64,000 nt of DNA from an uncultured virus (IMG/VR IMGVR_UViG_3300020048_000022) (Duplodnaviria > Heunggongvirae > Uroviricota > Caudoviricetes). Each line of letters opens with the position of its first letter. Position 1 is the first letter of the stretch. The notes under the pieces are model-generated. The model made no database searches. It was not told the DNA's origin and saw only the letters and a program-made list of their open reading frames with translations. A program made the translations under genes and the position numbers. Below, piece after piece: positions 15,600 to 45,890 of the stretch. The stretch lies in the IMG/VR virus record IMGVR_UViG_3300020048_000022. One strand, given 5' to 3'.

Positions 15600-16100
15600 A
15601 GGAGGGCATAGTTTCCTCTAGAAAAAAAAATTTGTGTTTTGGAACATACCCACTTTTTAGGACCCTCCCCCTCCATTGACATAGTACTTATAGAGAGAAG
15701 GGAGTACAGAGGGTATCCTAGATTATCCCTGTGAAGTACTGGGGTCGAATCCCTAGAAACATTGATTTTTGAGGTCAATAAAAATTCGCCAGACCAGGAC
15801 CGGGGGGTGATTTTCCATATAGCCCCCGGGCCATTGAATTTGAGTTTTAGGGGGGGTAAAATGGCCATTTTAGGGGGGTAAAAAGGGGGCTTAGAAAAGG
15901 GCCTAAAACTCCAGTTTTCACTAAAAAATGTGTGTTTTTACGGGGGTACCCCGGGGGATGTAAAATAGAGTGATTTCTCAGGTTTTTGGTGTTTTTTCTC
16001 TTTTTCTGGGGTACCCTCAGGGATCTTATATTGCTTAGTTAGGAAACCTTGGCTCACAAAAAAAGGCCACAGCGGGCTTTAGAGAAATGGGGGGTATAAA
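15600..16100. other. GC-rich non-coding left flank of the array with G-tracts
   Basis: Many G5-G7 runs, palindrome TAAAATGGCCATTTTA, no convincing ORF. Confidence 0.6.
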
Positions 16101-16107
16101 ATCTAGG

Positions 16108-16290
16108 TTATAGTAGCTGCACTTTTAGGCCCTTAAGAATCTCTTTGAGTTGGGGGGTTATTTTGGATGTGCCTTGGACGGTTGGGATAACGGTAGGCCC
16201 CTGGAGGGAGAAGATGTAGTCTGGTCCTTCTAGAATGTCGTGGGCTTCTAGGAGTGTTTTAACTTGCTTTAGTGTGTATTGTTTGTTCAT
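16108..16290 (-). CDS. hypothetical protein, last gene of the minus-strand array
   Basis: Start MNKQY directly after the class-I promoter; terminator at about 16055-16080. Confidence 0.55.
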   Translation of the reverse strand: MNKQYTLKQVKTLLEAHDILEGPDYIFSLQGPTVIPTVQGTSKITPQLKEILKGLKVQLL

Positions 16291-16380
16291 AGAGTAAATA
16301 TAAGGGGTTTTCTTAGAAGAAAAAAATGATTTCTTGGAATAATCGAGTGTATAATACTCTCTTATCTTCTTCTTCATCTT

Positions 16381-16590
16381 TATCTGGGGTACCTCATATA
16401 TAGTGATCTATGGTAACCACTGCTAATACATGCTTTACTTATGGATCCGGGGGTACCTCAGTGTGTTTACCATAGAGCAAGTACATGAAATACATGCTAT
16501 GTTATCCCTATCTGGGGTACCTTCCTTGCTTTACCATAGAGCAGATAATCATTATACATGCTATTACATCTTCATCTGGGGTGCCTTCCT
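16381..16590. repeat. four imperfect direct repeats with exact 64-bp period
   Basis: GGGGT ends at 16390, 16454, 16518 and 16582; shared TTTACCATAGAGCA and ATACATGCT. Confidence 0.85.
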
Positions 16591-16673
16591 TGGTCTTCTT
16601 CTCTTCCTAAGGCTTTGTGCACAAAAAAAGAGGTTGTTAAGACCTCTTCATTTTAGTGATGTGTAATGAGTGT

Positions 16674-16808
16674 TTAGAACTCAAATGATGCTGTACTATG
16701 TACATTACCTGTTATGACTTGTATGAAGGCATAACATAGAGATACAATTGTCATTGACATTAGCACTCCCACCCATATTCCTGCTAATAGATTGATTGTT
16801 TTTTCCAT
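16674..16808 (-). CDS. small membrane protein (44 aa)
   Basis: Hand translation MENTINLLAGIWVGVLMSMTIVSLCYAFIQV...; followed by a terminator. Confidence 0.55.
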   Translation of the reverse strand: MEKTINLLAGIWVGVLMSMTIVSLCYAFIQVITGNVHSTASFEF

Positions 16809-17078
16809 TTTGTTTTATTTAGTTTAATTTAGTTTTGTGAGATTTGTGACCATATTCTTAATAGGTCTGAAAGAAGTAATTGAGACTTTACACTTAACAT
16901 TTGAATCTTTGAATACATGAGATATTGTTTAATTGATTTACATAGCTAATATATGGATTTTTCTACTAAGTAAAAAACGATTTCTTGGAATTATGTGGAA
17001 AAAGATTTAGAATAAGATGTGTTCCTGTGGGGTACCTCAAGAGTGTTACTAGATATATAAATGATCTAACTAATTATT

Positions 17079-17291: not shown

Positions 17292-17303
17292 AACCACTAT
17301 ATT

Positions 17304-17486
17304 ATGAATGAGTACAGACTATTAACCAAGGATATGGAGTCAATTAACACTGTGAGATGTGATAGTTTTGAAGAAGCAATTGCATACTTTGCAGAGAAGA
17401 AAAGACTTAGTACAACTGATCTAATGAGCATTTTTAAAGTTGACATTCTTCCAGCTGATCCAGTCGGGGGTACCTCAAGAAGGTAA
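17304..17486 (+). CDS. hypothetical protein
   Basis: 60-aa ORF following 17079-17291. Confidence 0.55.
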   Translation: MNEYRLLTKDMESINTVRCDSFEEAIAYFAEKKRLSTTDLMSIFKVDILPADPVGGTSRR

Positions 17487-17688
17487 AAGAAGAAGACCAA
17501 AGAAAATTTCTTAGTACTATCTCAAACTCCTGGGGTTCCCCACGATGCTTTCTTTGCATTTTAATTTTTTCATATTTTAAAAATCTGGGGGCCTAAATAT
17601 AAGAATTATCATCCTTATAAAAAAATGATTTCTAAGAGATTCCAGCGGGGGTTCCTCCATGGGATTTGATCAGACCAATTTTTTTCCC

Positions 17689-17716
17689 CACAAAAAAAGG
17701 AGTCCGAAGACTCCTC
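17689..17716 (-). terminator. rho-independent terminator (representative of about 30)
   Basis: Minus strand AGGAGTC-TTCG-GACTCCT-TTTTTTGTG; identical hairpin at about 20110-20130. Confidence 0.85.
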
Positions 17717-17741
17717 TTTCACTTTTTAAACTAAACCCGGA

Positions 17742-18077: not shown

Positions 18078-18323
18078 AATAGATTTTTTTAAGTTTTGTT
18101 TAATTGATTAACATTACAAATATAAGTGGTCTTCTTTGATATAAAAAATGATTCTGGGAATTTCTTGGAAATTTCTAAAAAAATATTTAGTGTGTTCCTT
18201 GTGGTTCCTACCCGATTCTGATCACCGGGGGTTCCTCAAGAAGTCTGATTGGGTTTAGGAAAAAGTTAGGGGCACAAAAAAATCCGAGGGGGACCCGGAT
18301 TTAAAAAAATAAATCTACACAAT

Positions 18324-18630: not shown

Positions 18631-18686
18631 GACTCTACAAATATAGAGAATATTCTATTATATAAAAAATGATTTCTTGGAAAAAA

Positions 18687-18728
18687 CCCTCTCGTACGCA
18701 CGCACGTACGCACGCGTCCCCCGGGAGG
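18687..18728. repeat. alternating purine-pyrimidine element
   Basis: CGTACGCACGCACGTACGCACGCGT (25 nt) identical at 21046-21070; variants at 25093, 29429, 46401, 47665 and 48029. Confidence 0.85.
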
Positions 18729-18848
18729 AGCCATGGTATAATAATGTGAAGAAGAGTGAAGATGTACTGGGGCACCGCAGTGGGTTTACAGTAGACAGGT
18801 TACTGTAAACCTTGGTGCACAAAAAAAGACTCCTAAGAGTCTTTTTCT

Positions 18849-19133: not shown

Positions 19134-20147
19134 ATTCTTTTTATTAATTGGTTAAGACAAATATAGAAATTTCTACTTGATTAAAAAAATGATTTTTCAT
19201 CTTTTTCACTTGCTTTATCCATAAGGTGCATTGTGTAAAGACCTACGAAGACAGAAGCGATTACGATGTAATCACCTAAGTGATTTCCGAATACCATCAT
19301 TGTTGTTCCGAATACCATTCCTATAAAGAATAGGCACATTAAAATTGAAGTTTTCATATTGAGATTTGTTTAATTGGTTAAGACAAATATATAGAAACTT
19401 CTACATTATAAAAAATGATTCTTGGAATTTTTAAGAAAATGTTATCATGGCTTTACCATGATCCCGTGGGGTTCCTCATAGAGTTTACCATAGAGTAAAC
19501 TTTAAGAGAAACCTGCAACTGGTAAGTCTCTTGATCATTCTGGGGTTCCTCATTGGTTAATCCTAGCTGTCTTACCAGAATATAGCAATTTTTTTTAACT
19601 CCTTGTGATAGGATAAAGAAAGGTTCATCTACCTGGGGCACCTCAAGAATCCTGATCTGCTCTTGGTCAAATTCTTGGTCCACAAAAAAAGAGGACCTAA
19701 GTCCTCTCTCATTTCATTATAACCCCTTATAATGAAAAGCAAAAATTATTCATCTTCAAGAATTTCTTCTTTTTTAAATTCTTGAGATTGATTTAAGATT
19801 TCTTGTGCATCAAGTATTTCATTGATTTCATTTTGGTTTAGACCTAATTCAATTAAGAATTTTAATTTCTTTTTAATTTCTGGGTTCATATCTTATTTGT
19901 TTAATTGATTAACATTACAAATATATGGATTTTTCTACAATATAAAAAACGATTTCCAAGAATTGTTTTAGGTAAGTATCCAGATCCCGCGGGGTTCCCC
20001 AGAGTGAATCATCAGGTTATCATCTGGAATCACCTGGTAAGTATCCAGACCCGCTGCGGTTCCCCAGGAGAATCTCCTTAGCCACATCCAGAATTCTTAG
20101 CCCACAAAAAAAGGAGTCCGAAGACTCCTCTCTGTTTCCTGACCGGT

Positions 20148-20459: not shown

Positions 20460-20724
20460 AATTTGTTTTTGTTTAATTGATTAACATTACAAATATAAGT
20501 GGTCTTCTTTGATATTAAAAATGATTTCTGGGAATTTCTTGGAAATTTCCACAAGGGTACTGATCCATCCCTCTGGGGTTCCTACTCTGATCCTTACAGC
20601 GGGGGTTCCTCCAGCTGGACGCGCGGACTCGGCGCGGAATCCGATCCGAATCTTTTTAAATAAAAAAAAGACTCCGAAGAGTCTTTCCTTTTACATCTGA
20701 TAAGTGTTAATCAATCAAAAGTGT

Positions 20725-20955: not shown

Positions 20956-21143
20956 AATGAAGTTTTAATTGGTTTACTTAGCTAATGTAAAATAAATGCT
21001 TTAAATTAAAAAATGATTTCTGAGATTTTATTGGAAATACCCTCTCGTACGCACGCACGTACGCACGCGTCCCCCGGAGGGGCTCTCGTCATTATAGCCT
21101 TCAGGGTTAGTCCCCTGTGCTTACTTAATGACGAGAGAGTGTG

Positions 21144-22185: not shown

Positions 22186-22262
22186 CCTGGGGTTCCCCAA
22201 GAATTCTTGCATGTGCTACCAGAAAAACTTCAGCACACAAAAAAGGAGACATGAAGTCTCCT
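22186..22262. repeat. unit-boundary element: GGGGTTCCCC box, spacer, CACAAAAAA and hairpin (representative)
   Basis: CCTGGGGTTCCCCAAGAATTC(T/C)TGCATGTGCTA(C/T)CAGAAAA near-identical at 22186, 23434 and 25507. Confidence 0.85.
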
Positions 22263-23411: not shown

Positions 23412-23532
23412 AGTTAATATTTTATGTATATATCCTGGGGTTCCCCAAGAATTCTTGCATGTGCTATCAGAAAACATTAGCACACAAAAAATCCCAAGAT
23501 CTCTCTTGGGATTTTTCATAGTTTAATCTGGA

Positions 23533-23954: not shown

Positions 23955-24157
23955 TTTCTTTTTCTTTAATTGGTTCTCTCAAATATATGGAATTTTCTAC
24001 AATATAAAAAATGATTCCAAATTATCCTCCGGAGATCTGCTGGAGATCTGCTGGAGATAATCTCTGGGGTTCCCCACGAAGTTCCCACAGCTACGTGGGA
24101 AATCTTAGGTCACAAAAAAGGAGTCCTAAGACTCCTTCCACCCTAAAATAATTCCGG

Positions 24158-24472: not shown

Positions 24473-24696
24473 AATTGGGTTTTTTTAGTTATTGTTTAAT
24501 TGATTAACATTACAAATATAAGTAGAATCTTCTAATATAAAAAACGATTTCTTGGAATTTCTTGGAATTTTTTCCAGGGGTTTAAAGGGGTTTCGTGGGG
24601 GTTCCTCAGGAAACCTGATCCAGACCAGGTGAAAACATAGGGTCACAAAAAAGGACCCGAAGGTCCGTTTCCGTTTCCGCGATGCGATCGCCCTAG

Positions 24697-25023
24697 TTAT
24701 TTTCTATTAAATAATAATTGTGTTGCTGCATTAAGGTCGTGAATCCCTTCATCATCATCCTTATCACATTTAACCCATTGTCCATTATTCCATTTACAGA
24801 ATAGGTCATTTTCTTCAGCAACTAGACGGGTTCTTTCCCAAGCCACACCAGTATGGATTTCTTTCTGATAATCTCCATATTCCGGACAGTCACATGAGAG
24901 TCGTTGGGCTTCACATTCTGTACACCTTTCAATGTCACATCCATTAAGGTGAGCCTGTCCAGGTTCAACACCACAATCGTAACATGGTTCCTTTGGAAAA
25001 TCTTTAACTAATAACACACCCAT
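24697..25023 (-). CDS. Cys-rich putative zinc-binding protein
   Basis: CYDCGV.PG..H..GCD.ERC..C..Q..SC.C. Confidence 0.75.
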   Translation of the reverse strand: MGVLLVKDFPKEPCYDCGVEPGQAHLNGCDIERCTECEAQRLSCDCPEYGDYQKEIHTGVAWERTRLVAEENDLFCKWNNGQWVKCDKDDDEGIHDLNAATQLLFNRK

Positions 25024-25426: not shown

Positions 25427-25608
25427 ATCCTTTTTATTTACTTAGCTAATATATAGATTTTTCTACAAAGTAAAAAATGATTCCTGAATCAGTCCTACAT
25501 CTTTTTCCTGGGGTTCCCCAAGAATTCCTGCATGTGCTACCAGAAAACCTTAACACACAAAAAACCCCAAGATTTCTCTTGGGGTTTGAATTAAACTTCA
25601 GTCAGGTC

Positions 25609-28154: not shown

Positions 28155-28529
28155 CTAAGAATTTACATAGAGTCTATTTCCTCTACTCTCTATACGATCA
28201 AACTCTTTTCCATCAGAGTTAACCTCTTGATAATCCCAACATGGCTTAACCCTAGGATTGTATCTGAGTCTGGATGTCTCTATGATATCTTTCTGAGGAA
28301 CCCCAGTGATTTTCATCTCTTCACATAATACCCATGCACACACAGTTTTACTCTCCCCTTGAAATATCTTCTCTGCTTGTTTAGCATTATTACTTAACTT
28401 ACACTTCATCATTATAAGAGAAACTTCATCTGGTGATAAGTATTCGATAGTGCCATCGGGGAAGACACACTTCCATTTCATATAGTTCTTCCCTCTGGAT
28501 AAATTGAATCTAACTTTTATTCTAGCCAT
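28155..28529 (-). CDS. hypothetical protein
   Basis: 124-aa ORF; KTVCAWV, YNPR. Confidence 0.7.
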   Translation of the reverse strand: MARIKVRFNLSRGKNYMKWKCVFPDGTIEYLSPDEVSLIMMKCKLSNNAKQAEKIFQGESKTVCAWVLCEEMKITGVPQKDIIETSRLRYNPRVKPCWDYQEVNSDGKEFDRIESRGNRLYVNS

Positions 28530-28631
28530 GCTTATTTTACCTGGGGTTCCTCAGAGAGTTTCACTAGCAGCAACAAAACCTTCACACACAAAAAAGGAGA
28601 CCTAAGTCTCCTCCCTTGCTTGGGGTGTTAA

Positions 28632-28829: not shown

Positions 28830-29033
28830 GACTTATGTTTTAATTGGTTAATACAAATATAAGTACTTCCCTTTGATATAAAAAATGATTCTTAGAAAAA
28901 TTTGGAAAAAGTGTTTAGGGCCATCCTAAAGTTCCTGGGGTTCCCCAAGAGATCTGATCAGGAAATGTTTGAAAACCTTACCCCACAAAAAAACCCCGAT
29001 GATCCGGGGTGGTGCCGTGCCGTGGCGAGCCGA

Positions 29034-29354: not shown

Positions 29355-29514
29355 AGTGTGTTGTTTAATTATTAAGCTAATATATGGATTTTTCTACAAT
29401 ATAAAAAATGATTTGATGAAAAACCTCTCGCGTACGCACGTATGCGCAAGTCCCCCTCCTGAGGTCCCTGCACAAAAAAAGGGACCGAAGTCCCTTTCTT
29501 AATCATTACTGGAT

Positions 29515-30842: not shown

Positions 30843-31022
30843 AGCTTTTATTTAATTGGTTAACTCAAATATATAGATTTTTCTACATAATTAAAAATGA
30901 TTTCCCAACATTTCCTGATCAGAATCTCTGGGGTTCCCCAAGATATCCTGCGGCTGCTACGTGGCAAACCTGAGGCCACAAAAAAAGACCCCGAAGGGTC
31001 TTAGTCGTTAACCAATTAACTC

Positions 31023-31442: not shown

Positions 31443-31582
31443 AGTTAATTATTTAATTGATTTACATAGCTAATATAGAAACTTCTACTTGATATAAAAA
31501 ATGATTTTTAGAAATTTCTGGAAAAAGTTTTAAGGGAGAAAAAAAAGGTCCCGAAGGACCTTCTCTTGATAACCAATCAAAC

Positions 31583-31834: not shown

Positions 31835-32029
31835 AGTTTTTTTTATTTGTTTGATTAACTATATAAATATAAGGGAAATCAATTGATATAAAAAATGATT
31901 TCTAAACATTTCCGGATTAGCAGATCTGGGGTTCCCCAGGAATCTTCCCGTAGATACGGGGGAAACCTTAACCCACAAAAAAACCTAGGATAAATCCTAG
32001 GTCTCTTCAACAACTAAACTATGTCGAGT

Positions 32030-32659: not shown

Positions 32660-32718
32660 ACTTAATTTTAGTTGTGATTTATAGTGAAATCTACGTGAAT
32701 GTTTCGGGGGTACCTCAG

Positions 32719-33120: not shown

Positions 33121-33325
33121 AGTATTCTTTATTTGTTATAGAGCAAATATAATGAAAGAATCCTGGATTCTGGCCTGGGGAACCCCAGGAAAATATCATC
33201 AGATGAATGATAAAAAACCATTACACAAAATAAAAGCTCGATTTCTCGAGCTTTTTTGAGTTGACAGATTGGAACTGAGATAATGGCAGTAATCTCAGGG
33301 TATTCGGGATATGGCAGTCACCCGA

Positions 33326-35067: not shown

Positions 35068-35271
35068 TTGATTTATTTATGAGACAAATATAAGAACTCA
35101 TCTCTGATTAAAAAAATGATTTCTAGAATTTTCTAAAAAATCAACCTATAGGTTTAGCACCGATTCATTTCCGGAGGTTCCCCAGAAAATCCTGCGGATG
35201 CTGCGTGGCAATTCCTGAGGCCACAAAAAAAGGAGACCGAAGTCTCCTTGATTTTGGATATGGATTGGGCG

Positions 35272-36777
35272 TTATTGAAATTCCACTCTAACCACTTGAT
35301 TGACGATTGAAGATACCTCTTTAGGTAGAAGCTTCAAATCCCAAACACATTTCGAATAAGTGTAAAGAGTTCCGACGTGGTCTGCTTCGATACCAATTCC
35401 GACTGTGACAAATTCGTCTCTTCTTGCTCGTTCTAAAATTCTTTTGAGCTCTTCGTTATGCGCTTGACCTCCATAACTATTACCGCAAGGTTCACCGTCG
35501 GATAGAGATATGAAGATTATGCGGTCATCATTAGTCTCTCGCACTTTCTTATGAATAGCTTCGATAACCGGTCCATCGTAATTTTGTTGCCAAGACACCT
35601 GATTGTAAAAGCGGATATTCTTTTCGTACTCTGGGTCGTGTGGTGAATAGAACGTGTAAATCTCAGGTGAGTACTCTCCACTATGTCCGTAGATGTATAA
35701 TTTATCTGGAGGTAGAATTTGACTCATTGCGAGATACAGAGTATTCAGAATATGATGCTGAGCGGCAATTCGATTTCCTTGTCCCATGCTTCCTGACATG
35801 TCGGCTAATATACATACTGAGAAGGGTTTCGTATCCTGCTCCTCTACCGTTTGTTTATAGACGCTCATATTCCCTGCAGGGATCTCGGCTATTTTAGATG
35901 TGTCGAGTTTGCCAATTCGAAGGTTCTTAACATCATCGCTCTTCGGATCAAAACTGATGTCCAATAGTTTGATTAACATCTCGGAATCTTTCTTCTCCGC
36001 TTCAGTGAAACGATAAGTATTTTCTTCTTTGATTTTCTTTTTATCAAAAGGTACGAACTTAGGTATTTCTGTATATTCGGATAATGATTTTGTATGCGAC
36101 CAAGGTTTACTTTCGTTAATGTCTTTCATTAACTCCTGAATCGTCTTACCGCTTTTTCCTTGAGGTTGACTTCTACCAGGTTTCTTGCCTTCGCCTTTTG
36201 CTTCACCCTCGCCTTCTCCTTCACTTTCGTTCTCTCCTTCTCCTTCTCCCTCGTCTTCTCCTTCGCCTTCTCCTTCACTTTCGTTCTCTCCTTCTCCCTC
36301 GCCTTCTCCCTCGCCTTCTCCCTCGCCTTCTCCTTTCTCTGGTTTCGGTTCAGGAATTTCCATCTCGATTGTACTTGATAAGATCGAATCTTTGAAGTGT
36401 TCAAACATAGGCGCCATCTCAGGATAAGCTGCGCAAATCCGACTTAAGATATCTTCGCTATCCAAAGACACTACCGAATACTTCTTAATAGTGGTTCCGA
36501 AGTAAGAAGGCTTCTCGATAACCTTTGAAGGAAACTTATCGATTAAACCTTTCTCTTTCGCTTTAAGGATATAAAGTTTAACAAGCTTCTCCGCTTGCCA
36601 ACTTCCTAATTCCTTAGCGGCTTCGCCATTGGCTTTCACGTCCAAATCGAAGTCTAATTTAATAAATGGATAATCCGAGAGTACTCTACTAAATCCACCA
36701 AAGTGAGACTTTTCCCACCCTGAGGTTGATTTGTAACCTCCGCCCCATGAACTACCCCATCCTTTGTAACCTGCCAT
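35272..36777 (-). CDS. VWA-domain protein (CobT/NorD-like), paralog A
   Basis: MIDAS DMSGSM, NYDG..I, LSDGEP, VGIGI; (EG)n acidic linker. Confidence 0.9.
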   Translation of the reverse strand: MAGYKGWGSSWGGGYKSTSGWEKSHFGGFSRVLSDYPFIKLDFDLDVKANGEAAKELGSWQAEKLVKLYILKAKEKGLIDKFPSKVIEKPSYFGTTIKKYSVVSLDSEDILSRICAAYPEMAPMFEHFKDSILSSTIEMEIPEPKPEKGEGEGEGEGEGEGEGENESEGEGEGEDEGEGEGENESEGEGEGEAKGEGKKPGRSQPQGKSGKTIQELMKDINESKPWSHTKSLSEYTEIPKFVPFDKKKIKEENTYRFTEAEKKDSEMLIKLLDISFDPKSDDVKNLRIGKLDTSKIAEIPAGNMSVYKQTVEEQDTKPFSVCILADMSGSMGQGNRIAAQHHILNTLYLAMSQILPPDKLYIYGHSGEYSPEIYTFYSPHDPEYEKNIRFYNQVSWQQNYDGPVIEAIHKKVRETNDDRIIFISLSDGEPCGNSYGGQAHNEELKRILERARRDEFVTVGIGIEADHVGTLYTYSKCVWDLKLLPKEVSSIVNQVVRVEFQ

Positions 36778-36802
36778 ATCTCTTTTGTTTAATTGGTTAA
36801 GA

Positions 36803-36839
36803 CAAATATATGGATTTTTCTACAATATAAAAAATGATT
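36803..36839 (-). promoter_or_regulatory. class-I promoter (representative copy)
   Basis: AATCATTTTTT-ATATTGTAGAAAAATCCA-TATATTTG then TCTTAACCAATTAAACAAAAGAGAT-ATG. Confidence 0.9.
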
Positions 36840-36981
36840 CCTGAAATAAACCTATTTGTAGTATTTGTAGATTCATTTCCGGGGGTTCCCCAAGATTTTC
36901 CTTATTTGCCTTATTCGGATTCTTGGCCCACAAAAAAAGGAGACCGAAGTCTCCTCTCTTAGATATATGGAGGGTGTGGAA

Positions 36982-38448
36982 TTACTGAAACTCGGTCTTA
37001 ACGACTTGATTTAAAATGTTCGCAATTTCCTTTGGCATCTTAGTCAAATCGAAAACTGATTTGTGATACGTGTAAAGTTCCTTTACATAATCTGTAGCGA
37101 TACCAATACCTACTGTGACAAATTGATCTCTCCTCGCTCTCTCTAGAATTTTCTTCATGTTGTCGACATCGTCGCAAGGCTGTCCATCGGAAAGACTAAT
37201 AAGAATAACTGGTCGGTCTGTGGTCTCTCGTATCTTCTTGTGAACCGCTTCGATTACTACTCCATCGTAATTTGATTGATTCTCGATCTTGTAATATTGC
37301 TGTATATTCTGAAGATAGTTTGGAGAGTACGGACTACAGAATGTGTGGATTGTGGGATCGTTATCATCTGTGTGTCCGTAGATATGTAAATCGCTTTCAG
37401 GAATGATTTCGCTAAGTGCTAGGTATATCGAATTCAGAACCGAGAATTGCATATCTAATCTTGATCCCTGCATACTACCAGACATATCGGCTAACACACA
37501 TACGGCAAATTCTTTTGTGTCCTGATCGTCAACTGTCTGTTTATAGACACTCATATTTCCTGCAGGGATCTCGGCTATTTTTGAAGTGTCGAGCTTACCA
37601 ATGCGAAGGTTCTTAACCTCGTCACTCTTAGGATCGAAACTAATATCAAGCTGTTTAAGTATCATCTCGGCATTTTGTTTCTCTTCATGCGTCGGTTTGT
37701 AATCTTCTCTTTTAGAAGACTTATCTTTAGGCGTAATAAACTTAGGCTTATAATCATCGCCACTTAAACTACCCCATTTTGCAAATGGTTTCTGTTCCGC
37801 CATTCCTTCAATAAGCTCCTTAAGCTTTTTGTAGTCCGGAGTCGAAGCTCCCCATCCGCCAGGCTGCTTTTTCTCCTTGCCCTCACCTTCTCCGTCGTCT
37901 TGTCCTTCACCTTCGCCTTCACCTTCGCCTTCACCATCTCCTTCTTGTCCTTCCCCTTGGCCTTCTTTCTCGTCTTCGCCTTCTCCCTCTCCTTCACCTC
38001 CTTGACCTTCGCCATCCTCCTCTTCAGGAACTTCGACCTCGATTGAGCTATTTAGAATAGCGTCTTTGAAGTGTTCGAACAAAGGAGCAAACTCTTTAGA
38101 CTTCCTCATGACCTCGTTTAGTACATCAAGACGATCTAACTTAAGTACGTCGAACTGTGCATCGCGACCTATAATGTTTGGCTTAACCACTCGCTCTATT
38201 GTGAGGTGATGAATAAGTTCGTACTCTTTACATTTCATAACGTAGATCTTAACGAGCTTCTCCGCTGTGAAGATTCCTTCCTTCTTTCTTAGCTCTGGAT
38301 CTGCTTCGATCCTACCTTCGTGCCCAATCTTGATATATGGGTAGTCCCAGATGATTCGACTAAATCCTCCGTAGTGTGAATGTTCCCACCCTGACGTTGA
38401 CCAAAACGATCTTTTCTTTTTACCATATCCGTACCCGTATCCTGACAT
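36982..38448 (-). CDS. VWA-domain protein (CobT/NorD-like), paralog B
   Basis: DMSGSM, NYDG, LSDGQP; acidic Gly-Glu linker. Confidence 0.9.
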   Translation of the reverse strand: MSGYGYGYGKKKRSFWSTSGWEHSHYGGFSRIIWDYPYIKIGHEGRIEADPELRKKEGIFTAEKLVKIYVMKCKEYELIHHLTIERVVKPNIIGRDAQFDVLKLDRLDVLNEVMRKSKEFAPLFEHFKDAILNSSIEVEVPEEEDGEGQGGEGEGEGEDEKEGQGEGQEGDGEGEGEGEGEGQDDGEGEGKEKKQPGGWGASTPDYKKLKELIEGMAEQKPFAKWGSLSGDDYKPKFITPKDKSSKREDYKPTHEEKQNAEMILKQLDISFDPKSDEVKNLRIGKLDTSKIAEIPAGNMSVYKQTVDDQDTKEFAVCVLADMSGSMQGSRLDMQFSVLNSIYLALSEIIPESDLHIYGHTDDNDPTIHTFCSPYSPNYLQNIQQYYKIENQSNYDGVVIEAVHKKIRETTDRPVILISLSDGQPCDDVDNMKKILERARRDQFVTVGIGIATDYVKELYTYHKSVFDLTKMPKEIANILNQVVKTEFQ

Positions 38449-38555
38449 ATCCTTTTGTTTAATTGGTTAAGACAAATATAGAAAATTCTACTTAATATAA
38501 AAAATGATTTCAAAAAAAAGGACTGACGAATTTAATCGCCAGTCCCGTATCTTTT

Positions 38556-39596
38556 TTACTTAGCGTCGTCCAAGATCGCTTTGATACTTTTAAGACCTTC
38601 TTGACTTCCAAGACCTTTGCAAAGTACGACGTAACCGTCATAGATCGTAAAGCCGTTTGAAACCAATTTCGTAATTGTCTTAAGGTGACGAAGCGAAAGG
38701 TTGAACGAGATTTTGAACTCTTCGTGTTCCTTGTTAATCTTAGTGAACACGTCAACCAATTTTTTGATCTTCGTATCGTCCACTGTAGGGAACTCGCTTT
38801 TAAGCGTTGCCTCGATATCTTTGCTGTTGATTGCATCGACTTCGATTAACATGAAGCGGTCAAGTAATGCACGGTCTAACTTGTGCGTTCCTGTGTATTG
38901 ACTACCCATGTTAGCCGTTGAGAAGAACACGCAGTTCGGGTGGATCTTTACGGCCGTCGTATCGTGGAACGAATACTCCATCGGTAACTCTCTTCGGAAG
39001 TCAAGGCAAGGGAATAACAAGTTGTTCGACATTGCTCCAGCTCTTGAGATTTCGTCTAAGAGTACGATACCCGGTTGTTGAATGACCTCGGAGAAGCGAG
39101 AACGTTTGAACTCCGATTTCGTTACTCCGTCTTCTACTGTGATGACGTGAGTTCCGACAAGCCCCATTACAGGATCGGTCATTGTGCCCATGTCGAAGAT
39201 CGTAAGCGGTATTCCAAATACCTTAGCCAAGTTTGCGACCACTTCCGTCTTTCCAGTTCCCGTTGCCCCGATAAGCATCGTATTGACCCCAAATTCGATG
39301 TTGTGCTTAGCGATCTCGAAAGTGCCCGACTCCATCTTGAAGTATCCGTTCAGTGTGACAGTGTTGCCCGACTTCACAGCCAACTTAGGGTCTGCGGTTA
39401 AGCGAGGGGATTCGTCTATCGCTTCTACAGCTTCCGATACTACCGTCTTTCTCTTTCTTAGAGATTCCGAGATCTTTGCCTTAGCTTCCTCGCTCATAGG
39501 CTTTCTCACTTTCGGAGTAGCTTCTGATGCCGCTGCCAGGTCTAAAATTTCCAACGTTTCCGTTACTGCCACTTCTGCTTTTTTTGTTCTTGCCAT
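38556..39596 (-). CDS. MoxR-type AAA+ ATPase (CbbQ/NirQ/NorQ/CobS-like)
   Basis: Walker A GATGTGKT, Walker B VLLDEISRA, TAN.G..Y.GT..LD.ALLDRF, S.R.L. Confidence 0.92.
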   Translation of the reverse strand: MARTKKAEVAVTETLEILDLAAASEATPKVRKPMSEEAKAKISESLRKRKTVVSEAVEAIDESPRLTADPKLAVKSGNTVTLNGYFKMESGTFEIAKHNIEFGVNTMLIGATGTGKTEVVANLAKVFGIPLTIFDMGTMTDPVMGLVGTHVITVEDGVTKSEFKRSRFSEVIQQPGIVLLDEISRAGAMSNNLLFPCLDFRRELPMEYSFHDTTAVKIHPNCVFFSTANMGSQYTGTHKLDRALLDRFMLIEVDAINSKDIEATLKSEFPTVDDTKIKKLVDVFTKINKEHEEFKISFNLSLRHLKTITKLVSNGFTIYDGYVVLCKGLGSQEGLKSIKAILDDAK

Positions 39597-40401: not shown

Positions 40402-40595
40402 ATTGAATTAATTGGTTAAGACAAATATATGGATTTTTCTACAATATAAAAAATGATTTCCAAAAAAATCTAGTCCGCGTTTTTCACCGCAGTGCGCCTG
40501 AGGATCCCCAGGGAATTTGGGATGGCCTAAAAAAGTTTAGGGCAAAAGAAAGGGCTCAGATTTCTCTGAGCCCCGTGTTTTAAACCAATTAAACA

Positions 40596-41813: not shown

Positions 41814-41817
41814 ATCT

Positions 41818-42039: not shown

Positions 42040-42225
42040 GACTGAATCTTTAATTGGTTAAGCTAATATATAGAATCTTCTACAAAATAAAAAATGATTT
42101 CCAAGAAAGTTTTAAGTATCCGGTTTCGGGGGTTCCTCAGGAAGTGTGCGGAAGTGCTACGAAAAAAGCCCAACAAAAAAGCCCGAGATAATTCTCAGGC
42201 TTTTTTTATATAATGATGGAAGTCG

Positions 42226-42657: not shown

Positions 42658-42674
42658 ATTTAGGTTGTTATTGG

Positions 42675-42920
42675 TTACTTAATTATCTTAACCTTCTCTA
42701 CCGTCTCAGCAATCGCTCTCCACTCATTAAGGTCTAAGTCGAAATAGGGAGTTCCTAAATGAGCTTTGTTGTCCCCTTTCGGATGCCATTCTTCTGGTAT
42801 TAAATCCAAACGAGTCGTACCATATGCAGCTCTCTTTGAACCATCAACTTTTTCGAACTCAAATCTGACCTCTCCTTTAGCTAATCGTTTCTCTAAGACA
42901 CTTCTTTTAATCTTTCCCAT
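42675..42920 (-). CDS. WYL_2/DUF2693-like Sm-like SH3 beta-barrel protein (second copy)
   Basis: V.F.F.KVDGS.R.A.GT, IP...HPKG, YFDLD..EWR. Confidence 0.8.
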   Translation of the reverse strand: MGKIKRSVLEKRLAKGEVRFEFEKVDGSKRAAYGTTRLDLIPEEWHPKGDNKAHLGTPYFDLDLNEWRAIAETVEKVKIIK

Positions 42921-43061
42921 ATGATATTATAGTCGTTTGAACTGGTTTTGTTTCTTATCTCAAATATAAATAGATTTTTCTAATTAAAAAAATGATTTCA
43001 CAATAAACCCCAGGGACCATAGAACAAAGCAGAAATCTATTGTCGCCCGGGGCTTCGTCTA

Positions 43062-44021
43062 TTAGTCCTTCTTCGGACTTCTAAACAGTGTATCAAGTAT
43101 TTCCATTCTTCTTATTAAATCCGAATCGTCCAGCGGAAGTACCTCAGATGAATCTGTCGTTTCATCTACGTCCTCTTGACCCTCCAAATCATAACTCACA
43201 TCGCCAGTTGATGAAAGGTCGAATTGCATTTTTATATTGACCTCTCCCCTTCGGTTCTTAGTGAACATCGCATAGCGTGTCCCGTCCTTATCGAACCTAA
43301 GCTCCATCATACCTGTCGTATTGTGCTTGAGTTTATTTGATCCGAGAAACACTCCCTCTTTTGTGACCTGTTGGATACACAAGAAGCTCGTCCATTTGTT
43401 ACCTTCGTTATTAGCCATGTTGTGGTGACGCATAAGATCGACCAACCATTTTTCCGCCTTCTTACCACTCATCGCACTGGCTTCAGCAACCGTGTCTTGA
43501 ACCTCAACAAATGAATCGATCAGTACCACATCGTAACCTCGATTCAACATAGTCTCAATAATCGATTTGGGATTTTCATCTACGTACTCGCCAAGAAATA
43601 GAATGTCAAGATTTCCAAACTTAGGGTAACGCTTTACGTATCTGTAAAGATCCACTCGGTCCATCTCACCAGATATGAAAAGTACCGAAGCTCCGTTATT
43701 CTGTAAGTCTGCTAGAATATCCATTGACACTGTGCTCTTACCGACACCAGGATCACCGACCAGTATAAAATTGGTGGCTTTAGGAAAACCACCTTCGGTA
43801 CTTAATAATTTATCGATTGGTTTGTGCGTCTTAAGACACTTAAATAAATCAGGGTCGAATGTGAGCTCGTTCATCTTCACACTCTCTGGCTCAACCCCTA
43901 TCGCCTTAGCCGCTTCTGAGATTGTGGACTTAGCTAATCGCTTAGCCTCAAAACTCTTACGAACACCCTCTGCGATACGTGCTTTAGCTTCTTCGGACAT
44001 TGGTGTTCTTGGTGCGTTCAT
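43062..44021 (-). CDS. RadA/Sms-like RecA-family ATPase lacking the Zn-finger and Lon-like domains
   Basis: Walker A GDPGVGKST, LFISGEM, VLIDS, QVTKEG, KNRRG (compare RadA KNRFG). Confidence 0.8.
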   Translation of the reverse strand: MNAPRTPMSEEAKARIAEGVRKSFEAKRLAKSTISEAAKAIGVEPESVKMNELTFDPDLFKCLKTHKPIDKLLSTEGGFPKATNFILVGDPGVGKSTVSMDILADLQNNGASVLFISGEMDRVDLYRYVKRYPKFGNLDILFLGEYVDENPKSIIETMLNRGYDVVLIDSFVEVQDTVAEASAMSGKKAEKWLVDLMRHHNMANNEGNKWTSFLCIQQVTKEGVFLGSNKLKHNTTGMMELRFDKDGTRYAMFTKNRRGEVNIKMQFDLSSTGDVSYDLEGQEDVDETTDSSEVLPLDDSDLIRRMEILDTLFRSPKKD

Positions 44022-44072
44022 TTTATGAGATTTGAGATAAAAATAATCAATCGGTTCTGAAATAAAAAATGA

Positions 44073-44948
44073 TTATTCTTCGTTTACCGCAATGGTGTTC
44101 TTAATGCGCTCTGCAAATTCGTAATTCTCGTCTTCAACCGCCATATGCTCCATCACCTCTAGAACCACTTTCGGAAAATCTCCTAGTACGCCTTTTCCAT
44201 ACACATAGCGTATTGAATTAATCTCGTAATCTTCTAACTCCCCAGCGCTCTCAGCTTCAATCTCGTATAAACGGTCTGTGTACCATTCAGGTGAACCTTG
44301 AATATCTGCAGCTAATTCATAAGCCTCATCCGAACCACCCTCTGGGGTATTCTCTTCGACTAAGTCTCCTGCTTGAAATGTGTACTCGCCAACATTGTGA
44401 CCAAAATCCTCATCCGCATATCTCATACTAATAACTGCTTCCGGATACTTACGGCTTAAAGCCTCTATTACAGGATAAGGTGTACCCCACGCGGTTTCAA
44501 ATGAGATCTCGTTACTTCCTTCATCGGAGTTCTGAGAGTAAGCGTTCCATTTTGTACCCCAGTTGGCAGTGCTCCATGAATACCAATCTTGGTGTCCGTA
44601 TAATCTCACGTTATCTAAAGCCTGCTGAGCCTCTTCTAAATTAGCCGTGCCCTTCTCTAGCATATATGTGATTAATGCTTCCTCAGACTCAAACTCAGTC
44701 GCCCAATTGAACCCCATTATCTTTCTGATATCAGAAGGGTCACCTGCACGGTACTTTAATATAGCGATACCATTACTTGTGGAACTTCCGCTTGTGATAT
44801 TCAATGTGCCAGGACGAGGTAGGATCTTATTAAAATCAATGTGCATCGGCTCTCCGTCATCGTATGAGCCAGCGATTTCTGATTTAATCTTAGCGACTAA
44901 TTCTTCCGGTCCTGTGATTGTTAAAATGTTCGTTACGTGATTTGGCAT
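44073..44948 (-). CDS. YubB/DUF1281-like protein with C-terminal UVR-like motif
   Basis: MPNHV.N.L, WY.W...NWGTKWNA, FETAW..P, LS.KYP; AVEDENYE.A..IKN. Confidence 0.75.
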   Translation of the reverse strand: MPNHVTNILTITGPEELVAKIKSEIAGSYDDGEPMHIDFNKILPRPGTLNITSGSSTSNGIAILKYRAGDPSDIRKIMGFNWATEFESEEALITYMLEKGTANLEEAQQALDNVRLYGHQDWYSWSTANWGTKWNAYSQNSDEGSNEISFETAWGTPYPVIEALSRKYPEAVISMRYADEDFGHNVGEYTFQAGDLVEENTPEGGSDEAYELAADIQGSPEWYTDRLYEIEAESAGELEDYEINSIRYVYGKGVLGDFPKVVLEVMEHMAVEDENYEFAERIKNTIAVNEE

Positions 44949-45008
44949 TTTCTTTTTATTAATTGGTTAATGCAAATATAGAAAAATCTATTTAATTAAA
45001 AAAATGAT

Positions 45009-45533
45009 TTATGACATTTTTGTATCATAGCGATTAATCAATTTCAGAATCGCTTCTTGGTGTTTGTATTCGTACACACTCATAAGGGCTAACCAATAGA
45101 TTTGTTCCACCTTGCCTAATACGATAACATCAGGTGTAGCGAAAGGCATTCGATCTGCTGCCACTTGTTGAAGGGATCTTAATTGACCGATACCAACTTG
45201 AAGTTTCATATGACCTTCAGGATCCACCCCGTCTAATATGCGGCTCATAGCAATTCCTGTTTTCGATTCGACCTCATCGATATCAACTCCGAAGAATTCT
45301 CCTGATCCTAATTGTCCGCCCATATCCTGATACATCTTATTGTGTATCCGAGCCATGTCCTCATACACATTCTGAACATCGTTCCAGAATAAATCGAATC
45401 TCTTCTCACTGCGGTCTAACATATCACCTGCACCATCGAGTATACATGCCATACGCTTACTCTTATCATTACCACGTGCAAGATCATCAACGATACCTCT
45501 TAAAGACGCAATTAAAATAGCCTTTGATTTCAT
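45009..45533 (-). CDS. hypothetical protein
   Basis: Own promoter. Confidence 0.75.
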   Translation of the reverse strand: MKSKAILIASLRGIVDDLARGNDKSKRMACILDGAGDMLDRSEKRFDLFWNDVQNVYEDMARIHNKMYQDMGGQLGSGEFFGVDIDEVESKTGIAMSRILDGVDPEGHMKLQVGIGQLRSLQQVAADRMPFATPDVIVLGKVEQIYWLALMSVYEYKHQEAILKLINRYDTKMS

Positions 45534-45805
45534 AGTTTCCCCCTTTTGTTTATTAATTTATAGATCAAATATAAGGAATTATCTCTGAGAAAAAAAATGA
45601 TTTCTAGAAATTTCTATTAATCCGATGCGGAATCCGAGCGGCTCGCACTACGGAATCCGAGCGGAATCCGACACTCGAATCTCTCTCTGGGGTTCCCCAA
45701 GAATTCTGCGGATGCAATGCAGAGAAAATCCGGATGTGGCTGCGGATTAATCACGGGGGTTCCACAGGCGCCATCGATTCGTATAGAATTTTCTACAAAT
45801 GTCCG

Positions 45806-45890
45806 CACAAAAAAACCGAGACGAATCCCGGTTTTTTTCTAACCAATATAAACCTAAATAGTATGAGCGAAACCTGAGTGGAGTTTCACA
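45806..45890 (-). ncRNA. candidate small regulatory RNA (ORF-less promoter-terminator unit)
   Basis: Promoter variant 45894-45925, 5' hairpin GTGAAAC/GTTTCGC, terminator CCGGGA-TTCG-TCTCGG-T-run, no AUG-initiated ORF. Confidence 0.6.

Follow-up and report, generated by a model that had tools for sequence, protein, structure and literature searches.

What does a short quasi-palindromic box, GGGGWWCCYC, do between the genes of a giant phage? The stretch analysed here, which we call the window (64,000 nucleotides), comes from an uncultured giant phage of lake water and includes its early-gene array. Within the window the box occupies 30 distinct places (43 strand matches; shuffles give 0.37 expected and at most 2), all of them at 15943-47964, and with up to one mismatch there are 45 places, at 14-49 kb. 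A crude ORF map places 26 of the 30 between genes; the remaining four fall in a real-looking gene (28295), in an ORF called with a start that runs past a terminator (23437) and in two small unverified plus-strand ORFs (16450, 17467). On the gene-sense strand the central dinucleotide of 95 pattern matches in five arrays is AA in 75, TT in 9 and TA or AT in 11. The full polar core, CT-GRGGAACCCC-MG, spans about 14 bp and is unchanged among genomes whose marker proteins are only 35-45% identical. A preliminary description of this DNA had reported about 40 copies confined to 15.9-48 kb, almost all intergenic and with asymmetric variants of a single polarity, and the counts bear this out. Four relatives of about 130-250 kb show the same restriction, each with the box limited to one stretch of about 30 kb and to one polarity; a reversed-pattern control gave 0-3 matches per strand per genome.

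Almost every small gene of the array ends in a terminator, with the polar box about 40 bases further on. The order within a cassette is promoter, small ORFan, GC hairpin, T6-7 GTG, the AAGGTTTT motif, some 17 variable bases and the core CT-GRGGAACCCC-MG. Hairpin and T run score as an intrinsic terminator, and the minus strand has 33 terminator-like sites against 11.5 expected. Because the genes of the stretch lie on the minus strand, spacings were read along that strand, with the G of T5GTG as origin and the box's first base as end point. The features are as follows.

47750..47964, minus: control region upstream of the array's first promoter, with variants GAGGTTCCCC (47955), GAGGTACCTC (47818) and GGGGAAACCCC (47762) among short direct repeats
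47189..47572, minus: P0001, array gene 1, 127 aa; one HTH/Myb-like domain, invariant C-terminal tail; candidate box binder
46505..47167, minus: P0002, array gene 2, 220 aa; two three-helix HTH domains with a basic linker between; candidate box binder
46400..46464, minus: P0002 terminator, G at 46457; GC-rich alternating purine-pyrimidine module instead of box module
45756..45815, minus: tail and box; G of GTG at 45808, box-like GTGGAACCCC (1 mismatch) at 43 nt; second strict box 67 bp on (45689-45698)
42129..42181, minus: tail (T6GTT) and box; G at 42174, GAGGAACCCC at 36 nt
40500..40509, minus: box GGGGATCCTC, about 45 nt past a variant terminator
36882..36938, minus: tail and box; G at 36931, GGGGAACCCC at 40 nt; promoter motif at 36838
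35174..35231, minus: tail and box; G at 35224, GGGGAACCTC at 41 nt; then a AACCTATAGGTT palindrome module, then the promoter
33177..33186, minus: box GGGGTTCCCC, about 40 nt past a variant tail (hairpin, TTTTATTTTGTG)
32707..32716, minus: box GAGGTACCCC, adjoining the stop codon of gene 32719-33120, without hairpin or T run
31928..31983, minus: tail and box; G at 31976, GGGGAACCCC at 39 nt
30930..30986, minus: tail and box; G at 30979, GGGGAACCCC at 40 nt
29430-29480: second case of a GC-rich module in place of a box module
28937..28993, minus: tail and box; G at 28986, GGGGAACCCC at 40 nt
28543..28596, minus: tail and box; G at 28589, GAGGAACCCC at 37 nt; next ATG 13 nt past the box, no standard promoter motif between
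28295..28304, minus: inverted box, GGGGTTCCTC on the sense strand; the only box within a well-supported ORF (28155-28529)
25510..25565, minus: tail and box; G at 25558, GGGGAACCCC at 39 nt
24598..24653, minus: tail and box; G at 24646, GAGGAACCCC at 39 nt
24066..24120, minus: tail and box; G at 24113, GGGGAACCCC at 38 nt
23437..23492, minus: tail and box; G at 23485, GGGGAACCCC at 39 nt; no standard promoter motif before the next ATG
22189..22245, minus: tail and box; G at 22238, GGGGAACCCC at 40 nt
20602..20611, minus: box GAGGAACCCC, about 50 nt past a T8 run
19991..20112, minus: tail and two boxes; G at 20105, box-like GGGGAACCGC at 40 nt (20056-20065), strict box 65 bp on (19991-20000)
19468..19690, minus: tail and three boxes; G at 19683, box-like GAGGTGCCCC at 39 nt (19635-19644), strict boxes 19542-19551 and 19468-19477
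18769..18827, minus: tail and degenerate box; G at 18820, GCGGTGCCCC (2 mismatches) at 42 nt
18690-18725, minus: GC-rich alternating purine-pyrimidine module after the degenerate box of the preceding tail
18228..18282, minus: tail and box; G at 18275, GAGGAACCCC at 38 nt
17467..17698, minus: tail and boxes; G at 17691, GAGGAACCCC at 34 nt (17648-17657), more boxes at 17532-17541 and 17467-17476
17029..17038, minus: lone box GAGGTACCCC, no recognised tail upstream
16386..16629, minus: tail and four boxes or box-like sites; G at 16622, sites about 64 bp apart (16578, 16514, 16450, 16386) in a tandem 64-bp repeat
15943..16064, minus: last array tail and two boxes; G at 16057, box-like AGGGTACCCC at 40 nt (16008-16017), strict GGGGTACCCC 65 bp on (15943-15952)

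For the tail CACAAAAAA, 1.6 matches are expected and 23 occur, of which 20 lie on the plus strand within 16.0-46.5 kb. A strict box lies 34-43 nt past 13 of the 21 tails in the window; random placement over the array yields a mean of 0.16 (maximum 3), and random placement within 200 nt after the terminator a mean of 1.55 (maximum 6). When T5GTT tails and up to two mismatches are admitted, a box-like site is found 34-43 nt on at 20 of 24 tails, with a mode of 39-40. Across five related genomes, a box with at most one mismatch follows 74 of 97 tails at 28-55 nt, again with a mode of 39-40, and a strict box follows 58 of the 97 at 34-43 nt (null maxima 4-6 per genome). The claim that the box is held about 42 bp from the tail in some 20 cases is thus upheld: every example pair given for it is correct, and the spacing statistics it called for show enrichment far above both random-placement nulls. 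Terminator distances differ by a few bases, whereas promoter distances cover a five-fold range, 23 to 114 nt over 89 junctions. The box belongs to the terminator, not to the next promoter. Terminators that lack the module abut the promoter directly.

The stretch between tail and box has one conserved element, (T)AAGGTTTT on the sense strand at +7 to +14 past GTG, and the AAACCTTA-like motif noticed earlier in the spacer is therefore real. The roughly 17 nt that separate AAGGTTTT from the box have almost zero information content. At orthologous junctions of two relatives the spacer sequences differ and their lengths agree within 0-3 nt. Motif and box form an accessory module of about 55 bp directly 3' of intrinsic terminators, and what the 40-nt spacing measures may be something other than helical phase, for example the length covered by a blocked polymerase or the reach of a two-domain protein. 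An inverted repeat had also been reported in the spacer; some spacers do contain a hairpin, but 52 units folded one by one against shuffles have a mean z of -0.40 (median -0.16) with no common RNA structure, and the hairpin is not kept in the orthologous spacers of the two relatives compared. Rfam has no family that matches the element, and at one orthologous junction of two relatives the entire 15-bp site is inverted at an unchanged distance from the tail. The fold scores, the Rfam result and this inversion together favour a site at the DNA level over one in RNA.

Recurrent box-to-box gaps of 64-67 bp, read at first as about six helical turns, do occur six times in the window, yet they are due to tandem duplication (the repeat at 16466-16592 has 79% matches). 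Tandem boxes of the relatives lie 50-87 bp apart, and six-turn spacing is therefore not a property of the family, which leaves the helical-turn argument weak. The distal end of the array is a pile-up of tandem boxes in the window and in two relatives.

The phages are giant, uncultured and from lake water; they form one clade, and their promoters are of Bacteroidota type. The cassettes, which lie in an early or hyperplastic region, have been gained, lost and reordered among relatives. Whole cassettes resemble the PeSL elements of T4, the box being an extra part here. The box module travels with the upstream gene: at one junction compared in two relatives, similarity stops two bases past the box, just where the other genome has its insertion. 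Of 286 starts of similarity blocks between relatives, 64 lie in the promoter zone (6.6% expected) and none in the box zone; of 287 block ends, 6 lie in the box zone (1.1% expected). The box as a recombination breakpoint was rejected on these counts.

As for what might bind the box, P0001 and P0002 stand at the head of the array in all four box-bearing relatives and are absent from the one box-less relative searched, a co-occurrence that rests on one clade and on that single box-less genome. Among metagenome loci of at least 4 kb found via P0002, 20 of 22 hold strict boxes, and the box sequence is the same at loci down to 40% protein identity. Of the two three-helix domains in the P0002 model, the central one aligns with SANT, Myb, GcrA-DBD and Reb1 domains at Z 6-7, a range that the tool calls common; Foldseek with P0002 returned nothing at E <= 0.001. 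P0001 has weak GcrA and HTH hits (E 0.004), and one homologue matches GerE at 27.1 bits (cut-off 23.5). The two Myb/SANT-like HTH proteins are the best candidate binders, and the invariant C-terminal tail of P0001 could contact polymerase.

With its invariant 14-bp core, its polarity and no RNA fold, the box is best read as a putative protein-DNA site. Our preferred, though tentative, interpretation is that it may serve, as a polar protein-binding site, to back up or insulate terminators and so separate neighbouring transcription units; the binding, the binder and the roadblock are inferred. A sequence-specific protein, with P0001 and P0002 as the best candidates, would occupy the box, and RNA polymerase that reads through the hairpin terminator would halt before it. 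The RNA-DNA hybrid of the halted polymerase would lie over the T-rich AAGGTTTT stretch, 25-29 nt upstream, where release would be favoured, and the next promoter would thereby be shielded against incoming polymerases. The box, about 40 nt past the T run, is too far away for direct help to the terminator, and such a barrier therefore presumably needs this second T-rich stretch as its release site. Of the three options suggested earlier, a recombination site, a transcription roadblock and a DNA-organising site, the roadblock agrees best with a box that is tied to terminators instead of promoters, whereas a recombination site is at odds with the block starts. Some observations count against the barrier. 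The terminators look strong alone (GC-rich stems, seven T) and may seem to need no back-up; the copy found inverted at an unchanged position speaks against strict polarity; and the fold matches of P0002, as its candidate binder, are middling.

Somewhat less probable, yet a real possibility, is that the box is an operator or upstream activator through which the HTH proteins of the array head switch the early promoters jointly on or off, the terminator distance being secondary. As in autoregulated genes, the promoter of P0001 and P0002 themselves has box variants upstream, both in the window and at three metagenome loci, and the GcrA/HTH hits and C-terminal tail of P0001 would suit such a role. 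Box-to-promoter distances are also non-random, with none below 23 nt (a floor of 23-28 nt), peaks at 27, 38-40, 51-53 and 57-59 and a weak periodicity near 11.25 bp (nR2 about 6); floor and peaks would also suit an upstream regulator site. One orthologous junction of two relatives has the box where the usual upstream promoter motif would be, 14 nt ahead of a TAnnTTTG element, which again tells against the barrier. However, 134 of the 210 promoter motifs lack a box in the 125 nt ahead of them (76 have one), the two promoter classes being alike; some boxes have no promoter behind them, and others form tandem runs at the array end. The five-fold variation in promoter distance and the exchange of cassettes, which leaves the module with the upstream gene, likewise speak for the terminator. 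It is unlikely that the spacing is functionless, a relic of descent left by copying terminator, spacer and box (any protein site) as one unit among cassettes. Sub-families of near-identical spacers inside one genome would fit (three window junctions, 22238, 23485 and 25558, have one spacer in common, and three junctions of one relative another), as would the duplicated 64-bp spacing and the shuffled cassette order. Most spacers, though, are unrecognisably different and still 39-40 nt long in five genomes with marker proteins 35-78% identical, and orthologous spacers keep a nearly constant length through many substitutions while the box-promoter stretches of the same junctions vary freely.

Equally improbable is a second promoter for host polymerase carrying a phage sigma factor, with AAGGTTTT as upstream element and a start at or just past the box. 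Sigma-70-family proteins score above the Pfam cut-off in three of the four box-bearing relatives (1-3 hits), the outline of T run, about 20 nt, AGAATTCT-like stretch and element is that of a standard promoter, and two window junctions have terminator and box but no other promoter motif ahead of the next gene. Nevertheless, a G4-N2-C4 core is poorly suited to DNA melting, nothing is conserved at +13 to +39 past the box, the pre-box stretch agrees with TAnnTTTG in its last two letters only, the tandem boxes of the array end have no genes behind them, and the box is missing elsewhere in four large genomes, late regions included. We give still less credence to an element acting in RNA that passes the hairpin, for instance a processing or protein-binding site in a 3' extension. 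The sense-strand polarity (AA 75 of 95 against TT 9), the position of the module in the 3' end of the upstream gene and the pairing, via G-T pairs, of GTG and the next bases with a downstream stretch in some spacers are consistent with it; the position behind strong intrinsic terminators, the absence of a common fold or Rfam family and the fully inverted site are not, and G4-AA-C4 cannot form a hairpin because its loop would be only 2 nt. Least probable of all is a crossover site at which a recombinase moves cassettes, comparable to integron attC. Cassettes do come, go and change order, each with one box copy at its 3' end, and metagenome contigs from one lake-water DNA run join distant array junctions, with short flanks of 21-80 letters. 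Against this, 64 of 286 similarity blocks start at promoters and none at boxes, 6 of 287 block ends lie in the box zone, a scan of 104 window proteins turned up no integrase family, and attC has paired inverted core sites, which the box site lacks. The GC-rich module after the P0002 terminator takes the position that the box module holds at other junctions.

A divergent control region near 47.6-48.7 kb stands at the head of about 70 mostly small minus-strand ORFs, which extend in the window to about 15.9 kb, as drawn on a crude ORF map (ATG starts only, greedy choice). Most of the small ORFs of this stretch (15.9-47.6 kb) have no Pfam family at E <= 0.001, which makes the array an ORFan-rich, hyperplastic region, and the terminator tails and the box GGGGWWCCYC are both restricted to it. 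The junctions between its genes are composite.

Parts of an array junction, in minus-strand reading
Part 1, stop codon
Part 2, GC-rich hairpin with a four-base loop
Part 3, T6-7 followed by GTG (the tail)
Part 4, (G/T)GC(T)AAGGTTTT
Part 5, about 17 variable bases, rather G+C-rich
Part 6, A-n-T-T-C-Y-T, then GRGGAACCCC (the box on the sense strand), then (A/C)G
Part 7, stretch of variable length
Part 8, promoter: (GA)AATCATTTTTT, 18 nt, then TAtaTTTG or TATATTAGC
Part 9, A-rich leader (AACCAATTAAA-like), then ATG

The tail motif CACAAAAAA has 23 matches in the window where 1.6 are expected, 20 of them on the plus strand between 16.0 and 46.5 kb. What the preliminary description had called a terminator tail proves to be the T run of an intrinsic terminator, read from the opposite strand. 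These sites have a GC-rich hairpin, a T run on the transcribed strand and a position at a gene 3' end, as intrinsic terminators do, and a consensus scan of 16-36 kb returned 33 terminator-like sites where 11.5 are expected; those on the minus strand fall on the T6-7 GTG tails. At most junctions, the hairpin and its T6-7 are followed within 5-230 nt by a promoter motif (ATCATTTTTT, 18 nt, then TAnnTTTG or TATATTAGC). Across five arrays, that of the window and those of four box-bearing relatives (130-248 kb), the promoter classes have the upstream part (ATCATTTTTT, 18 nt) in common; 74 matches carry the host-type TAnnTTTG ending and 85 the TATATTAGC-like one, which may require a phage factor, and the relatives encode 1-3 sigma-70-family proteins.

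The box has 43 matches over both strands of the window, at 30 distinct places that all lie within 15943-47964, against a mean of 0.37 and a maximum of 2 in shuffled sequences. With the G of GTG and the first box base as end points of the distance, a strict box (no mismatch) stands 34-43 nt after 13 of the 21 window tails; random placement within the array gives a mean of 0.16 such cases (maximum 3), and placement within 200 nt after the terminator a mean of 1.55 (maximum 6). When T5GTT tails and up to two mismatches are included, a box-like site occupies the 34-43 nt interval in 20 of 24 window tails; two of the other four are followed by a different GC-rich module and two directly by a promoter. 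Across the five arrays, whose counts, like those of the metagenome loci treated below, are not independent because all of them are mutually related, a box with at most one mismatch lies 28-55 nt after 74 of 97 tails (mode 39-40) and a strict box at 34-43 nt after 58/97, with every genome far above both random-placement nulls.

The genome-wide distribution was tested on the four relatives, standing in for the window's own genome. In these, the box is limited to one stretch of about 30 kb and to one polarity, with a single outlier in one genome, and a reversed-pattern control gave 0-3 matches per strand in each. A fifth relative (482 kb) has one box match and no cassettes. The enrichment of the terminator-box spacing over both nulls bears out the held distance that the preliminary description had proposed, and its picture of a mainly intergenic motif confined to part of the genome agrees with the restriction to about 30 kb in the four relatives and with the position of 26 of the 30 window boxes outside the crude ORFs. 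A search of viral contigs for the exact 15-mer around the box gave 46 single matches on unrelated contigs; a second strict box was present in only one of the 46, and they were set aside as chance matches. Repeated 10-mers of the box kind were absent from 16 loci of relatives found via the AAA protein (52-70% identity).

A position table built from 52 tail-to-box units has T6 GTG fully conserved, GC-AAGGTTT at +4 to +13 with about 1 bit per position, about 17 nt nearly without information and a weak A-n-T-T-C-Y-T. Eight of the ten box positions carry about 2.2-2.5 bits (positions 4 and 5 are lower) and the two positions past the box 1-1.6 bits, while nothing is conserved from +13 to +39 after it. 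T is the commonest base at each of positions -28 to -25 before the box (27-41 of the 52 units). On the sense strand, 75 of 95 matches have AA at the box centre and 9 have TT, and two linked box types, CTGGGGAACCCCAG and CTGAGGAACCCCCG, occur within every genome. The dyad symmetry is limited to the 14-bp core; a 20-bp dyad was tried and rejected, since mirror agreement drops to 45-47% at the first pair flanking the core and to under 35% further out. The idea that box type (GGGG...AG or GAGG...CG) tracks residues of P0002, the product of the second array gene, was also dropped, with both types present in every genome and five genomes too few. In the window, but not in the relatives, boxes with a TA centre cluster towards the distal array end. 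A host-type promoter hidden in spacer and box was rejected as well, given that only the last two letters of TAnnTTTG match.

No common spacer fold was found when the 52 units were compared with shuffles (mean z -0.40, median -0.16), and Rfam gave 0 matches at gathering score over the whole window. The spacer hairpins of some junctions are not retained in the orthologous junctions of two relatives, where the length is retained, and at one orthologous junction in two relatives the entire 15-bp site is inverted at the same distance. Together with the conservation by position and the polarity, these observations favour a duplex-DNA site read by a predicted protein, the spacing itself probably being under selection.

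The evidence points to the box belonging with the terminator, since its distance to the promoter is variable (23-114 nt over 89 junctions), most promoters are boxless (of 210 promoter motifs, 76 have an upstream box within 125 nt and 134 have none) and two window junctions have a terminator and a box with no promoter motif before the next ATG. Moreover, at junctions without the box module the GTG directly abuts the promoter, and at one junction in two relatives the similarity stops two bases past the box, where the other genome has an extra promoter-plus-gene unit; the portable unit is therefore promoter, gene, terminator, spacer and box. The promoter classes do not differ in having a box upstream (29/74 vs 30/85). 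The box-to-promoter distances are non-random, with none below 23 nt, peaks at 27, 38-40, 51-53 and 57-59 nt and a weak periodicity near 11.25 bp.

The genes come in a shuffled order when the window is compared with a relative. Of the 286 distinct starts of similarity blocks between relatives, 64 lie in the promoter zone, where chance would place 6.6%, and none in the box zone; of the 287 block ends, 6 lie in the box zone and 9 in the spacer. The cassettes are thus points of exchange between related genomes, via the promoter repeats and not the box. Joints between distant array junctions were seen in one DNA metagenome run, with short flanks, and may stem from related phages. An integron attC site was considered and rejected: the dyad ends at the 14-bp core, AAGGTTTT does not read as the box inverted, the 104 window proteins that were scanned gave no match to an integrase family, and the breaks lie outside the box.

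We tentatively propose, as a possibility still open to considerable doubt, that the box is the polar site of a predicted terminator-coupled protein barrier. A protein on the box would stop polymerases that had got past the hairpin terminator. When a bacterial polymerase is blocked by a bound protein, its RNA ends about 15-20 nt before the obstacle; by this estimate, the RNA-DNA hybrid of the blocked polymerase would cover the T-rich AAGGTTTT stretch situated 25-29 nt upstream of the box, and release would be favoured. Tandem boxes accumulate at the distal array end in the window and two relatives, where they would keep early transcription out of the next same-strand module. Such a barrier would explain the fixed distance from the terminator, the polarity, the promoterless modules, the travel of the box with the upstream gene and the distal tandem boxes.

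The proposed barrier leaves three features unexplained, namely the preferred box-to-promoter distances, the box variants in the control region and a junction in two relatives with a box 14 nt before the TAnnTTTG element. All three fit the main alternative, in which the box is an operator or activator site for P0002 and for P0001, the product of the first array gene. We regard this alternative as only slightly less probable than the barrier; promoter distances of 23-114 nt, with 134 of 210 promoter motifs boxless, argue against an activator box in fixed position. It seems improbable that the terminator-box spacing is only a relic of duplication, and there is a similarly small chance that the box is a promoter for a phage sigma factor of the kind found in the relatives. 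That the box acts as an RNA element is very improbable, in view of the fold statistics of the 52 units (mean z -0.40) and the lack of an Rfam match in the window, and a recombinase site, against which the empty box zone stands (0 of 286 block starts), is the least probable of these readings.

Candidate box binders at the array head
47189..47572, minus strand, P0001, first array gene (127 aa)
46505..47167, minus strand, P0002, second array gene (220 aa)

P0001 has one HTH and an invariant 19-residue C-terminal tail, and matches GcrA weakly (E 0.004); one of its homologues is above the GerE cut-off. Its profile found nothing useful among PDB sequences, the GcrA DNA-binding domain coming at E 1.5. 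The N-terminus of P0002 matches HTH_Tnp_1 above cut-off, and its centre matches Myb and homeodomain-like families below cut-off (Pfam Myb_DNA-binding, E 0.033). A structural model built from 32 sequences (mean pLDDT 70) has three-helix domains at 7-45 and 88-128, a basic linker of about 40 residues and a small C-terminal domain. Foldseek gave no PDB match for P0002 at E <= 0.001. With VIA-align, the central domain aligned to SANT, Myb, GcrA-DBD, Tc3, Reb1 and TRF1 at Z 6-7, a range that the tool calls common; for the Reb1-Ter structure 5eyb the values are Z 6.4 and rmsd 1.7 over 50 residues.

The P0001 and P0002 genes head the array in 4/4 box-bearing relatives and are absent from the box-less relative. 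P0002 has 292 metagenome relatives at E <= 0.001, and 46 metagenome loci were found with it; among the 22 of at least 4 kb that were examined, some of which repeat contigs already counted, 20 have strict boxes and 17 at least one tail-plus-box pair. These boxes and pairs occur down to 40% protein identity, with the box unchanged. In the window and three metagenome loci, the P0001 and P0002 genes have box variants, mostly TT-centred, upstream of their own promoter. By their co-occurrence with the box within one clade and by their predicted fold, P0001 and P0002 are candidate box binders and nothing more.

Polar roadblock terminators are known for RNA polymerase I (Reb1, Nsi1, TTF-I) and in mitochondria (mTERF), with an oriented site downstream of a T-rich release stretch, and the binding proteins of the Reb1/TTF-I type are Myb-like. 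The array resembles these systems in having an oriented putative site downstream of a release point (AA centre in 75/95, 34-43 nt past the tail, one inverted orthologous junction). The P0002 central domain aligns to Myb-type folds, although the match is middling and common to many HTH families. Unlike those systems, the array belongs to a bacterial virus and a bacterial polymerase, has an intrinsic hairpin terminator in front, and has a predicted binding site. The MotA box of T4 occupies a fixed place inside the middle promoter and is read by a phage activator. Here too one short box precedes many phage genes and the candidate reader is an early phage-encoded DNA-binding protein, but the box-to-promoter distance is 23-114 nt and most promoters are boxless. 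REP/BIME elements of enterobacteria are imperfect, hairpin-forming palindromes of 35-40 bp, found chromosome-wide, to which DNA-organising proteins bind and which may influence termination and topology. They share with the box the character of repeated oriented elements past gene 3' ends, whereas the core here is 14 bp long, is unable to fold and occurs in one 30-kb phage stretch.

In the available parts of two papers, PeSLs between genes of T4-type phages are described as having two parts, a promoter and a stem-loop, which often overlap, and their cassettes are exchanged between related genomes through the repeated promoter (PMC2839356; PMC4122927). In our arrays too, short composite units of a terminator and a host-type early promoter lie between ORFans of a hyperplastic region, and relatives gain, lose and reorder whole cassettes, with breaks at the repeated promoter. 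The arrays differ from that account in having the box as a third part, conserved, set at a constant 39-40 nt past the terminator and lying outside the break zone, and in a promoter of the Bacteroidota type TAnnTTTG (PMC9723704) instead of the sigma-70 consensus. PeSLs belong to T4-like myoviruses and form encapsidated mini-circles; the likeness seen here is in the composite unit, the ORFan region and the exchange points. Having these three PeSL features, the cassettes as a whole appear to work like PeSLs; the box and its 40-nt ruler are not part of the PeSL description in those parts.

The third part is unchanged across phages whose proteins are at 35-45% identity and keeps its distance from the terminator, which points to insulation between units as an added and hitherto undescribed control layer. 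Most unknown genes of large phages sit in their early regions, where gene exchange is also fastest. A further-reaching proposal, which we consider unlikely, is that a phage Myb-like protein is an oriented barrier set by a 40-nt ruler behind every early-region intrinsic terminator in giant phages of freshwater Bacteroidota, the bacterial-virus counterpart of Reb1/TTF-I of RNA polymerase I. If true, the Myb-like barrier would turn every ORFan cassette into a portable unit of transcription sealed off from its neighbours. Genetic circuits in Bacteroidota could also profit from a terminator-plus-barrier module that is short, portable and works in that phylum. Literature searches by box spellings returned, among the matches listed, only primers or unrelated sequences, and a search by topic (jumbo phage or Bacteroidetes intergenic motif at terminators) gave nothing on the box element.

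Near-identical DNA to the window was not found among deposited phages, and its 714-aa protein had no tblastn match among them. Among the proteins that the window encodes are two ATPases, one of MoxR-type AAA kind and one DnaB-like, along with a pair of vWA proteins and a virion-type Laminin_G protein; no gene for the capsid, the tail or the T4 core was recognised in it. The best cultured relative of the ATPase is in a Bacteroides phage (36% identity), and its uncultured relatives are encoded by viral contigs of 130-482 kb. The contig that carries the P0002 protein of the window itself extends to 162,731 bases. At least half of the words sampled from 22.0-32.0 kb are present in aquatic and lake-water metagenome runs of 19 studies. 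To judge from the contig sizes of the relatives and the occurrence in lake water, the source is an uncultured giant phage of lakes. These phages are common there, with the window stretch in runs of 19 studies and 292 metagenome relatives of the candidate binder. Flavobacteria have TAnnTTTG as their sigma-A element, at -12 to -5 (PMC9723704), and because the array promoters are of this type they point to a probable Bacteroidota host.

None of the listed runs containing the window stretch was recorded as RNA. Three metatranscriptome runs of one study gave few contigs, all of them gene-internal and silent on the junctions. Contigs from two freshwater metatranscriptome runs match the gene-internal stretches 24858-25008, 31029-31372 and 31570-31712 with 0-2 differences; DNA carry-over is possible, and the matches are a hint of natural activity of the phage or of a very close strain.

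Some junctions contain further elements. At some junctions, the position directly after the terminator is taken not by the box module but by a second junction module, in which a G-run with GGGAC precedes a GC-rich stretch of alternating purines and pyrimidines (CGTACGCACGCA-like); after the P0002 gene this is always the case. Alternating purine-pyrimidine runs are able to adopt left-handed DNA.

Occurrences of the second junction module
Window: 18690-18725, 21046-21068, 29430-29460, 46400-46445, 47670-47700, 48040-48070
Related sequences: near L047 1970; L048 12700, 20150; L106 10760; L110 3530; L124 10680

An optional module between box and promoter consists of the 12-bp perfect palindrome AACCTATAGGTT and KATTT (window ~35125-35140; related sequences L048 ~15800 and L065 ~15420 and ~19480), the palindrome being retained in relatives whose AAA protein is at only 35% identity. 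The divergent control region at 47600-48700, between the minus-strand array and a plus-strand module, has dense short direct repeats (e.g. CTAGGGATCT, AGAGACTCTTAG) and, at 48140-48500, a long C/A-rich, T/A-interspersed stretch similar to one upstream of the same genes in the related sequence L076; it may be an origin or other regulatory hub.

Other features of the window
27-7866: accessory block adjoining the array, with two NADAR domain proteins, an MGS-like protein, an RNA-repair-type HAD domain, a gamma-glutamyl cyclotransferase-like protein and a member of an integron-cassette protein family (VCH_CASS14, E 2e-25)
3230-4666, plus strand: 478-aa protein whose match to the CRISPR-associated RAMP superfamily is borderline, at 22.0 bits for a cut-off of 22.1 (E 2.6e-4)
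31583-31834 and 42675-42920: small paralogous WYL_2 (Sm-like SH3 barrel) proteins in the array (E 5e-13 and 7e-14)
35272-39596: adjacent MoxR-type AAA ATPase (346 aa) and two vWA proteins (488 and 501 aa, CobT-like C-termini)
36188-36335 and 37871-37999: imperfect 6-, 12- and 18-bp tandem repeats inside both vWA genes

The MoxR/vWA trio is chelatase-like, is embedded in the early array and is widely conserved among large phages, and the tandem repeats of its vWA genes would encode acidic, Glu/Gly-rich low-complexity linkers.
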